Assembly: GCA_046563655.1 (NCBI GenBank)
Contig: CM102287.1
Span: forward strand, 7,750,001-7,814,000
Origin: Yuukianura sp. NJ FZ-2021
Taxonomy: Eukaryota
Reading direction: 5' to 3'
Length of the DNA: 64,000 bases
The notes below the pieces were generated by a model. It made no database searches. It worked only from the letters and a program-made list of their open reading frames with translations, and was not told where the DNA came from. Made by a program: the position numbers and the translations under genes. Positions 14,978 to 18,448 of this stretch are shown here, piece by piece. Position 1 is the first letter of the stretch. Every line of letters begins with the position of its first letter.

Positions 14978-16668
14978 ATGATAATAATTAGGAAGTTGAC
15001 ACCTTCAGTTCGAACTGTGGGAGTCTTTTCCAAGGCGCACTTAATTTCTTGTTATAATTTCAGACCAAGTTGCTTAAAGGTAGAACAAAATGGCGTCATT
15101 TTCTATTCATCGATATCTTCCAGCGTCGTCAGACATCCCACACTGCAACCCGGTTGTCATTTGAGAAGGTCGCAAGTGGTACTCCAAAAGTCACACTTTA
15201 CTACTACGTCAAGTCGTCTTTATGCTTCAGAAAGTCAGGATAAGGAAAAAGTATCCAGTGCAGAACATGATGTCCGGTCTGAAGATAATGAAACCGAAAC
15301 ATCCGCGAGTGGCGAGTCTGATTTGCCTCCATCTTCAACAAACGAAGACGTTGAGTCCAGCCCGAATGCCCTTACGCCAGAAGAAATCAAGACTCTTTCT
15401 GGTGGTGATCCACAGTTAGAACATAAGATTCAGTTCATTCTTATGGAGGTTGAGCTAATGAGGTAAATTTTCAATTCATGAATAGTCAAGATCTAATCGT
15501 AGGTGTCACTCAATTGAGTTTCCTTTTTAGGCAGGTTGGTTCTCGAGTTCCAGATAAAATTACGATGAAATACTGGCCGGAACTGCTGAATCTTCAAAGT
15601 AAAGGTCAACGAATCAAATACTATTTGTATCTCTGGAACGTCGAGAAAGCACAAATCTCAGATAAGCGTAGAAAAGAAGAAAAGCGTCTAAAACGTCTTG
15701 CAATGTACGCCGAAAATCCCTTGCCCACCATAGAGGATGACCCTTATGGAATGGTGTATGGTCTCAATAGAAACGCTATCACGCTCCGTCTCTACGACAC
15801 TACAATTGCAGCGTTCCATCATCATCGAGTAATTTCCGAAATGGTACTCGGCTCGGCTCCGCTTGTTCTTGACTTTGGTTATGAAGATCAAATGGTTATT
15901 CGAGAAGCCAAGAACTGCGCCTCCCAGGTCGAACTTCTTCTAACCGAGAATCGAACACATCCGCAACCGTTCAATCTCTCTTTTTGTAACGCTGATCCCA
16001 ACTCCAATACAATTACCCATCTTCGAAAACGTATACCCACCATGTACGACGATAACTACGCCCTCAACATAAGCGAGAAGAGTTACCTCGACCTTTATCC
16101 AAGGGAGAAGCTCGTCTATTTGTCTCCGCATGCCCGGGAGGAACTGACAGAATTTGATCACGACGAAATTTACATCATCGGAGCCATTGTTGACAAGACT
16201 GACCCAAGACCATTCTCTATCGCCAAAGCCAAGAAGGAAGGAATTCGTATGAAGAAACTTCCACTGGACAGTAGAGTTGACTGGGGAATGGGCAACAAGA
16301 GTCTCACGATTAATCAGATGATATCCATCATGTTAGAAATTCGGGCCACTGGAGACTGGGACAAGGCACTCCGATTTATTCCTCGGAGGAAACTTGTTGG
16401 CGGAAGGATGGAGTGCCCATTGCCAGACCCAGATGCAGTGCCAAAACGTAGATCTTCTGGTCCACAAGCGCAAGTATTCAAGGACTTTGAATTGGTTGCT
16501 CAGCGACGTCGAGGCTTTGTGTATCAAGGAGCGCAAGATGATCAGCGACACGGGAACAACGACGATTCTAATGCAAGGCAAAGGCAAAATCCGAATCCAT
16601 ACAAAGGCAGGCAGCAGGGATATGGTCATCGACCCCATATGAGATCTATTATGTCAGACTTGGACTAA
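14978..16668 (+). CDS. TRMT10C: Mitochondrial RNase P protein 1 / tRNA m1R9 methyltransferase 10 homolog C
   Basis: Exons 14978-15462 and 15531-16668 (gt...ttttag intron). Presequence-like N-terminus. TRM10 SPOUT motifs LVYLSPHA, YIIGAIVD, KKLPLD...W, KSLTINQM, W..AL..IP.RK. Confidence 0.92.
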
Positions 16669-17061: not shown

Positions 17062-18448
17062 ATGGCTGATCAGGTAATTCATTAGTCTAATTACGATTAA
17101 GATTCAATTTGAGACGTTTGTTCAGATATCAGATATCAAGGAAATGGAGGAATCCGAGCAGACCATACTGAAGTGGGATATGAAATCAATCGGCATTAGA
17201 TTTTTAGATTTCATAATGCATAGTGAAAGAATGGAGATGTTAACTGCATTTTGTAAACGGCGAATAACGATTGTAATGTCATTTCTGTATGTCTAATGTG
17301 TTTGATTTGATTCGGATGGTCTAAAGGCAGAGCGAGCATTTCAAAAACAACCAACGATTTTCTTGAACCACAAGAAGGGAGTTGGTTTCGTTCGGAAGAA
17401 GGGCGGAAGTGGAAGTATCAATAAGTCCAAAATCGCTGCACGGTATACGCGAAACGTCGGACTTGGATTCAAGCCACCGCGAGAGGCAATACTTTTAATT
17501 GCTATTCTGAAATTGCTAATTTTTGGTTTGTTTTGTTTTTTCTTTTTGGTTTGCTGTTTTCCTGTTTGGTTCCATCCTTATCCATAACCTGTTTGCACTA
17601 ATAACTTCACACGAAAGACGGAAAGAGCTTTCCAGAAACAACCCACTGTCAATTTGAACAGAAAAGGAGATTCAAAGAAGGGGCTGCGACATGTCAAGAA
17701 TGTCGGTCTTGGTTTCAAGACTCCACGAGAGGTTTTTATGATATTTTTATTATTTTGCTTATTTAAAAAACACTGACTAAATCACTGATGATAACAACGA
17801 CGGTCTTCCGATTTAAGAATGAGCAGATTAATTCAACAAATGTTCTGAGATTTTGTTGGCTTTTTAACAAGCTGTTTGTTTTTGATGTAACTTATGAGAT
17901 GTTTTTCAGTTTGATTTATGTATTTTGTTGTGTTCATAGGCATCGGAAGGAACTTACATTGACAAGAAATGTCCTTTCACCGGCAACGTTTCCATTCGTG
18001 GCCGAATCCTCACTGGAGTCGTACAGAAAATGAAGATGCAGAGAACCATCATCATCCGGAGAGACTACCTTCATTATATCAAGAAATATAATCGTTTCGA
18101 GAAGAGGCATCGAAACATGGCCGTTCATCTCTCCCCGTGCTTCAGGTAATTTGAAACTAATTGAAACAACATAAAATTGTTTTCAATTCAATGATGACAA
18201 CACGACGGTCTTCGGATTTTATGATGATCGATACCATTCTCACATTCTGACTGTGTACATGTCTCCCTATAAACTATGGTGTTTAAGAACAATCCGTGAA
18301 ACTTTTGCTTTTTTGTTTATACAGAGACGTGGGTCTTGGTGACATCGTGACGATCGGAGAATGTCGACCTCTGAGTAAAACCGTGAGGTTCAACGTCCTC
18401 AAGGTGTCCAAGGGCCCAGGAGCTAAGAAGAGTTTCAAGAAGTTTTAA
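17062..18448 (+). CDS. RpS11: 40S ribosomal protein S11 (uS17) with alternative duplicated exon 2
   Basis: Exons 17062-17073 (MADQ), 2a 17327-17485 or 2b 17618-17731, 17940-18145 ([22 protein letters not shown]...HLSPCFR) and 18325-18448 ([17 protein letters not shown]...FKKF*). Confidence 0.97.
17780..17853 (+). ncRNA. SNORD35: Box C/D snoRNA, SNORD35/snR73 family (copy 1), intronic in RpS11
   Basis: Box C TGATGA 17786-17791, guide ACGACGGTCT followed by D' CCGA 17808-17811, box D CTGA 17845-17848, terminal stem aaatc/gattt. The guide is antisense to the conserved LSU rRNA sequence AGACCGUCGU. Confidence 0.85.
18191..18251 (+). ncRNA. SNORD35: Box C/D snoRNA, SNORD35/snR73 family (copy 2), intronic in RpS11
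   Basis: Box C ATGATGA 18191-18197, guide CACGACGGTCT plus D' CGGA, C' ATGATGA, box D CTGA 18247-18250. Confidence 0.88.

Follow-up and report, generated by a model that had tools for sequence, protein, structure and literature searches.

Can one ribosomal protein gene make two versions of its product by choosing between two neighboring copies of its second exon? This question is raised by RpS11, the gene for uS17, on the plus strand of a 64,000-nucleotide (nt) stretch of Yuukianura sp. NJ FZ-2021 (GenBank assembly GCA_046563655.1, contig CM102287.1, positions 7,750,001 to 7,814,000), hereafter the window, from whose first letter all coordinates are counted. Two homologous exons, 2a and 2b, lie one behind the other between exon 1 and exon 3 of this gene. 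We found that the pair is real, ancient, and under selection; its mutually exclusive use and a functional difference between its products are proposals read from the sequence. Very probably, this one gene gives rise to at least two uS17 proteins that are identical except for a basic N-terminal loop within the Ribosomal_S17_N domain.

The coding part of exon 1 (17062 to 17073) begins with the ATG at 17062, encodes MADQ, with which hexapod homologues also start, and ends at the donor CAG/gtaatt. Intron 1 (17074 to 17326, 253 nt) carries a CTAAT motif ~30 nt before its weak aaag acceptor, and its last 88 nt are free of AG. It is followed by exon 2a (17327 to 17485, 53 codons), a 132-nt intervening intron (17486 to 17617), exon 2b (17618 to 17731, 38 codons), a 208-nt intron (17732 to 17939), exon 3 (17940 to 18145), and the coding part of exon 4 (18325 to 18448), which closes with the TAA at 18446 to 18448. 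The coordinates and translations given for 2a and 2b in the initial annotation proved exact, both exons being open and in phase 0-0, and the splice signals were as it described them: both acceptors read aaag, exon 2a is followed by gcaata (17486 to 17491), and exon 2b by gttttt.

The homology of the two exons within one uS17 gene, likewise claimed at the outset, is borne out by direct alignment (25 identities over 53 positions with a single 15-residue gap; BLASTP E value, 3e-13) and by Pfam, in which 2a and 2b match PF16205 (Ribosomal_S17_N) with 36.9 and 43.0 bits, respectively, over profile positions 2/3 to 45, the gathering score being 27 bits. Exon 3 continues the same model (positions 46 to 69) and opens PF00366 (Ribosomal_S17; positions 1 to 43), and exon 4 supplies positions 45 to 68 of the latter. 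Both models thus score above their gathering thresholds and in the correct order along the gene, which places it in the uS17/RPS11 family. The two exons, adjacent, homologous, and frame-compatible, differ in length by 45 nt, and all four splice combinations are open: inclusion of 2a alone predicts a protein of 166 amino acids (aa), 2b alone one of 151 aa, both exons together one of 204 aa, and skipping of both one of 113 aa. Where the anchors align without gaps, both copies encode the same residue at 22 codons, of which 12 differ synonymously, indicating that the copies are old rather than the outcome of recent duplication or conversion. We also considered a second gene copy or a retrocopy in the window as a candidate and rejected it, as a six-frame motif scan of the 64 kilobases (kb) detected no further uS17 fragment.

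A duplicate may nevertheless be dead, and for exon 2a this alternative would be that its noncanonical GC donor has left it unused and decaying in this lineage. To its credit, the donor is indeed unusual: in 28 of 37 sequences that run past an exon 2 copy into neither exon 3 nor the next copy, the first residue is V, the in-frame reading of a GT donor. When metagenome contigs were scanned with 2a, 56 loci were recovered, two of which (L001 and L010) carry the whole arrangement in the same layout as the window, namely, A, B, a small nucleolar RNA (snoRNA)-like element, exon 3, a second such element, and exon 4; both contigs stop short of exon 1. (A and B denote the upstream and downstream exon 2 types, represented in the window by 2a and 2b.) Exon 2a of the window and its L001 counterpart are 83% identical in the scan and 85% identical in the codon alignment.

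Pairwise Nei-Gojobori estimates of the ratio of nonsynonymous to synonymous substitution (dN/dS), computed from the proportions of synonymous (pS) and nonsynonymous (pN) differences except where pS was saturated, point to protein-level constraint. For exon A, the window differs from L001 with pS 0.61 and pN 0.087 (dN/dS, 0.074) and from L010 with pS 0.66 and pN 0.209 (0.152). For exon B, the corresponding values are pS 0.65 and pN 0.156 (0.116) between the window and L010, pS 0.62 and pN 0.115 (0.096) between L001 and L010, and pS 0.81 and pN 0.212 (ratio not computed) between the window and L001. Exons 3 and 4, over all pairs, show pS of 0.46 to 0.97 and pN of at most 0.069, with dN/dS mostly not computed (0 for exon 4 between the window and L001). 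All length differences are in frame. Both exon 2 copies are therefore protein coding and under purifying selection in springtail-like lineages, and low dN/dS together with in-frame indels at near-saturated synonymous sites argues that 2a is not a dead duplicate. Moreover, its open frame, its GC donor, and the next three bases are shared with L001 despite that near-saturation, and an A-type exon is kept in Allacma, Folsomia, and L010. On these grounds, a decaying 2a is highly improbable.

Database searches show that the pair extends far beyond this lineage. The closest match to the 2a protein is the predicted uS17 of the springtail Allacma fusca (P0003; 78% identity), whose 2a-like exon has the long loop and the ending of 2a. 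A search with the 2b protein returned many hexapod uS17 entries of ~194 aa that carry an A-type and then a B-type copy in tandem, as well as ~152-aa entries with the B-type copy only; in Folsomia candida, both forms are annotated (isoform X3 with A and B, X2 with B only). When the N terminus of a two-copy odonate protein was used as the query, Schistocerca, Tribolium, Photinus, Molorchus, Sergentomyia, and Glossina were added, together with a 193-aa two-copy uS17 of Daphnia galeata. Isoforms with A alone are annotated in Neocloeon (X1) and Rhodnius (X1), so that separate A-only and B-only isoforms are found within one species (Neocloeon X1 and X2) or across relatives (Rhodnius X1 and Periplaneta X2). 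For Drosophila, RpS11 forms of 155 and 196 aa are annotated, and the chain deposited for uS17 with the Drosophila 80S structures (4v6w, 6xu6-8) has B only and is 155 aa long. The parallel in insects that the initial annotation had offered is thus true and widespread, with A-only, B-only, and A-plus-B isoforms from Folsomia to Drosophila and an A-plus-B form in Daphnia.

Over all searches, 192 uS17 proteins were fetched, and 38 of these contain two copies. All except one (37/38) come from named pancrustaceans (hexapods and Daphnia galeata) or from contigs with the same two-copy layout. The exception is a fish protein (P0134), which we did not accept as a parallel, since it is a fused tandem gene model in which exon 3 sequence is repeated as well. 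In five of the 38, all of them contigs, the reading frame continues through the intervening intron for 14, 18, 21, 42, and 50 codons, and two are Drosophila models with 13 to 16 residues between the copies.

Public annotation accordingly already includes the exon pair (as RefSeq isoforms in many insects and Folsomia and as Drosophila isoforms), and the window adds a further member rather than a new kind. A full-text literature search retrieved no paper describing the pair; the 2013 Nature Communications survey of the Drosophila mutually exclusive exome lay outside its coverage and may list the gene. The names "ribosomal protein S11-2" and "RpS11-PC" were met only in passing in literature listings. 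The window follows the hexapod layout (insects and Folsomia) in its exon order, with two tandem phase 0-0 homologues, upstream A and downstream B, between the MADQ exon and exon 3, and it also shares the anchors and the shorter B loop. It departs from that layout in two respects. The A donor is GC, unlike that of annotated hexapod RpS11 isoforms, and the A loop is 8 to 13 residues longer than in the other hexapod A copies listed (39 to 44 residues, with one of 45). Such an enlarged, G/S/K-rich A-type loop (50 to 54 residues) occurs only in the window, L001 (445 to 606), and Allacma fusca; this ribosomal protein loop has expanded in a lineage-specific manner.

Which of the two copies is the older in pattern was addressed with A and B profile hidden Markov models trained on the first and second copies, respectively, of 20 insect two-copy proteins, each exon being scored as A minus B bits. 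The window exons separate clearly (2a, +17.1; 2b, −11.6), as do the first and second copies of Folsomia (+19.4 and −5.1) and Daphnia (+10.5 and −3.1), and the Allacma exon scores +11.2. All 13 named non-pancrustacean exons, drawn from myriapods, chelicerates, a priapulid, a tardigrade, a mollusc, a brachiopod, and amphioxus, are A-like (+3.3 to +18.0). As these single exons are without exception A-like, the upstream copy is ancestral in pattern and the downstream B copy is derived. Dipteran first copies, which are strongly diverged, fall between −2.8 and +0.6.

The history of the duplication was traced with trees of 42 exon segments of ~40 aa. In a free maximum-likelihood tree, insect second copies cluster with two fast-evolving dipteran first copies, that of Sergentomyia lying inside the insect second-copy group and that of Bradysia beside it. 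Trees constrained to unite all second copies or hexapod second copies only reached slightly higher likelihoods than this quick free tree (P values of the approximately unbiased test, 0.56 and 0.63, respectively). From these ~40 residues, a single origin of the pair before the springtail-insect split appears likely, and the Daphnia pair may be either older still or an independent duplication.

How, then, might the choice between the copies be made? The reading that we favor, and hold to be moderately probable as a whole, is that RpS11 of this springtail-like hexapod carries an old tandem pair of alternative second exons whose balance would be set by weak splicing signals. The upstream A-type exon resembles the single exon of other animals and the downstream B-type exon is a derived version with a shorter loop, each supplying the first ~45 positions of the Ribosomal_S17_N module. 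The most likely mRNAs would be exon 1-2b-3-4 (151 aa) and exon 1-2a-3-4 (166 aa), possibly with a minor in-frame form containing both copies (204 aa). Selection between them would depend on signals kept weak by design, that is, the aaag acceptors, the conserved GC donor of 2a, and the conserved weak U-rich donor of 2b, flanked by strong signals at the exon 1 donor and the exon 3 acceptor. Splicing of 2a to 2b would probably be disfavored if the 2b acceptor used a distant branch point 12 to 33 nt from the 2a donor, after which the U/G-rich tract of the AG-free intron would follow. The more specific claim, that the isoforms are balanced by the weakness of the splice sites flanking each copy, the lineage-specific GC donor among them, and that a distant branch point limits double inclusion, we put forward only tentatively; isoform usage and ratio, the branch point, and any functional difference between ribosome variants are what we infer here.

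The splice signals themselves are plain to see. The acceptors of both alternative exons are weak (aaag or gaag), lacking an adjacent pyrimidine tract and having CTAAT upstream, while the donors of exons 1 and 3 (gtaatt) and the acceptors of exons 3 and 4 look ordinary. The 2a donor reads GAG/gcaata in the window, without G at +5, GAG/gcaatt in L001, and GAT/gtaaat in L010; its occurrence in both the window and L001 marks the GC donor as a conserved trait of that lineage and not an error. The 2b donor is also conserved in its oddity, reading GAG/gtttttat in the window, gtttttat again in L010, and gtctttat in L001, with U-rich sequence following in all three. As a side observation, the first three intron bases after 2a (gca, 17486 to 17488) equal the first codon of exon 3 (GCA, 17940 to 17942); the same match is seen in L001 (607 to 609 and 1111 to 1113), and L010 has gta and GCC. 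This match may be due to chance or may be a trace of how the GC donor arose.

The weakness of the 2a donor also bears on another explanation, in which 2a is a regulatory or poison element: inefficient use of the GC donor would lead to retention of the intron between 2a and 2b, translation would end prematurely, and uS17 output would thereby be tuned. The initial annotation had noted that read-through of this donor yields a truncated reading frame, and this is correct, the TAA at 17585 to 17587 being reached after 33 codons. Together with the GC donor lacking G at +5, this read-through stop speaks for such an element, and a regulatory role would be compatible with a coding one. Inclusion of 2a, however, keeps the frame, so that a premature stop results from intron retention only. 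In addition, 2a evolves under the protein-level constraint described above (dN/dS of 0.07 to 0.15, saturated synonymous sites, and no indel that breaks the frame), it lacks the conservation at the nucleotide level that a purely regulatory exon would be expected to show, and the same exon in L010 has a strong gtaaat donor. The autoregulatory role once suggested for 2a therefore found no support, and we regard a poison element as quite improbable.

The intron between the copies bears on the other part of the favored reading, the limit on double inclusion. It measures 132, 140, and 125 nt in the window, L001, and L010, respectively, and contains no internal AG in any of the three, whereas the AG-free zones before exons 3 and 4 span just 15 to 42 nt. 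Measured from the 2a donor, candidate distal branch motifs (YTRAY) occur at 12 and 33 nt in the window, at 21 and 33 nt in L001, and at 15 nt in L010; the branch A residues in the window are at 17498, 17519, and, for the proximal motif, 17601. L001 has no proximal YTRAY motif. Between the distal motifs and the 2b acceptor runs a long U/G-rich tract, including a 15-nt block (17545 to 17559) that L001 and L010 share at the homologous place. The AG-free intron and the distal motifs fit, without proving, a steric block of splicing from 2a to 2b.

RNA structure, as far as we looked, offered no alternative basis for the choice. The predicted fold of the 866 nt from the exon 1 donor to exon 3 was no better than that of shuffled sequences (z, +0.57), the best of nine inverted-repeat pairs (13 nt at 92%) was at chance level by our estimate, and a consensus fold of the three intervening introns reached −1.47 kcal/mol with compensatory changes in none of 12 pairs. 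These results thus lend no support to control by competing pairings, which may nevertheless operate.

A rival to alternative use is constitutive double inclusion, in which exon 1-2a-2b-3-4 (204 aa) would be the standard product, with a tandemly repeated N-terminal module, and single-copy forms would be minor. Several observations weigh against the reading that we favor. A is joined directly to B in 30 of the 38 two-copy proteins, and in Schistocerca, Tribolium, Blattella, and Cryptotermes such a protein is the sole named model of the species, which makes strict exclusivity doubtful, at least in insects; Folsomia isoform X3 likewise indicates that A-to-B splicing may occur. The intervening intron of the window, at 132 nt, is long enough to be spliced, and proximal CTAAT/CTAAC motifs are located 16 and 21 nt before the 2b acceptor in the window and L010, respectively, so that 2a may still be joined to 2b. 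Since both exons are in phase 0-0 and the forms with 2a and with 2a plus 2b stay in frame, no decay route would act against double inclusion. The number of internal AG expected (2.8 to 3.4; 3.4 in the window) and the probabilities of finding none (0.017, 0.041, and 0.034 for the window, L001, and L010, respectively) derive from mononucleotide shuffles of short T-rich introns in three related species. Similarly, the 15-nt block has a single occurrence in the 64-kb window (expected, 0.22 with at most 1 mismatch) and one in each of L001 and L010, the 54 other loci having none; it is of low complexity, and since the three sequences that had supplied its pattern were also the ones searched, the test is partly circular. 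With respect to a shared origin, the free tree keeps springtail B copies apart from insect B copies. Finally, the single RNA contig that is nearly identical to the window covers the joint of exons 3 and 4 alone and neither exon 2 copy.

That contig comes from one public metatranscriptome run (0.10 share of sampled words), in which nine contigs matched the gene at a likeness of at least 85%. Only one was at least 99% alike (0 to 1 differences), showing the joint 18145 to 18325. The other eight were <95% alike (seven <90%) and had foreign flanks, so we attribute them to other organisms.

On balance, constitutive double inclusion appears improbable to us. A-only and B-only isoforms are annotated (Neocloeon X1 and X2, Folsomia X2, Periplaneta X2, and Rhodnius X1), and spliced B-only contigs exist (P0105, which resembles Folsomia, and P0071). 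The chain in the Drosophila ribosome structure is B only, and the intron of the window is AG-free with distal branch motifs. Among the read-through contigs, the two shortest inter-copy introns, of 14 and 18 codons, argue in the same direction. Three such insect-like contigs (P0016, P0025, and P0132) have inter-copy introns of only 14, 18, and 21 codons (42 to 63 nt), near or below the usual minimum size, which may physically block double inclusion there.

Alternative use of 2a and 2b by weak signals, the reading that we prefer, has counterparts in known splicing systems. According to excerpts of two reports (PMC2490688; PMC4165533), GC donors are enriched in alternatively spliced genes, and in intron 10 of Caenorhabditis elegans let-2, a conserved GC donor is required for the regulated choice between the mutually exclusive exons 9 and 10. 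Like the window, let-2 combines a tandem pair of homologous exons with a conserved GC donor. In let-2, however, the GC donor follows the downstream exon rather than the upstream one, the intervening intron, at 30 nt, is too short to splice (PMC4165533, excerpt), compared with 132 nt here, and the gene families are unrelated. For exclusivity itself, the portions available of the respective papers describe steric interference, in which the distant branch point of the downstream acceptor is too close to the upstream donor (PMC4165533), and OGDH exons 4a and 4b, for which distant branch points enforce exclusivity (PMC7969005). The window resembles these cases in its AG-free intron with branch-like motifs 12 to 33 nt from the upstream donor and a U-rich tract thereafter; it differs in that its branch points are sequence motifs only and in that proximal motifs are also present in two of the three species.

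As for what two versions of uS17 could mean, the basic N-terminal extension of the protein contacts 18S rRNA. One could go further and propose that the A/B choice is a programmed switch for ribosome heterogeneity, older than the springtail-insect split and perhaps older than that between branchiopods and hexapods. Depending on whether they carry the A loop or the B loop, 40S subunits would then contact rRNA differently and be used in different tissues or stages; the choice would be enforced by weak splice sites together with a distant branch point, and in one springtail lineage it would have been retuned through a conserved GC donor and enlargement of the basic A loop. Taken in full, this scenario strikes us as rather unlikely.

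Work on specialized ribosomes in animals has centered on duplicated ribosomal protein genes. In Drosophila gonads, switching between the paralogues RpS5a and RpS5b also provides alternative versions of a core ribosomal protein, as described in excerpts of PMC8887423, by means of duplicated genes rather than of duplicated exons within one gene as in RpS11. The same source reports RpS11 to be enriched in the 80S ribosomes of the Drosophila head by proteomics, and the passages covered do not mention isoforms. RpS11 is a single-copy core gene in which an rRNA-binding N-terminal loop is retained in two alternative versions, each under purifying selection, with the pair spread across hexapods and a similar one in Daphnia. 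It thereby offers a clean genetic test of ribosome heterogeneity, as exon-specific deletions are feasible in Drosophila. For annotation, the lesson is that both exons are real and the GC donor is genuine, and that gene models fusing or dropping one copy need to be checked against RNA. Five details are new: A is ancestral and B derived; the pair may extend to Daphnia; both copies are under purifying selection in springtail-like genomes; the GC donor is conserved; and the intervening intron is free of AG.

Two minor features complete the locus. The intron between 2b and exon 3 contains a C/D-box snoRNA-like element (17780 to 17852, plus strand), and a second copy, recognized by reading, lies in intron 3 at about 18186 to 18256 on the same strand. 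Both copies share one antisense stretch beside a degenerate D' box, and both are kept in all three loci, with counterparts in L001 (934 to 1005 and ~1362 to 1432) and L010 (889 to 958 and 1288 to 1358). All of their Rfam matches are below threshold: sn3071 gives 24.5 bits for the first window copy and 20.8 to 24.8 bits overall, against a gathering score of 40, and snoR53Y gives 26.8 bits against 43 for the second copy in L010. Upstream of RpS11, within 16500 to 16642, a plus-strand coding region apparently terminates; its stop is near 16640, ~420 nt short of the RpS11 ATG.

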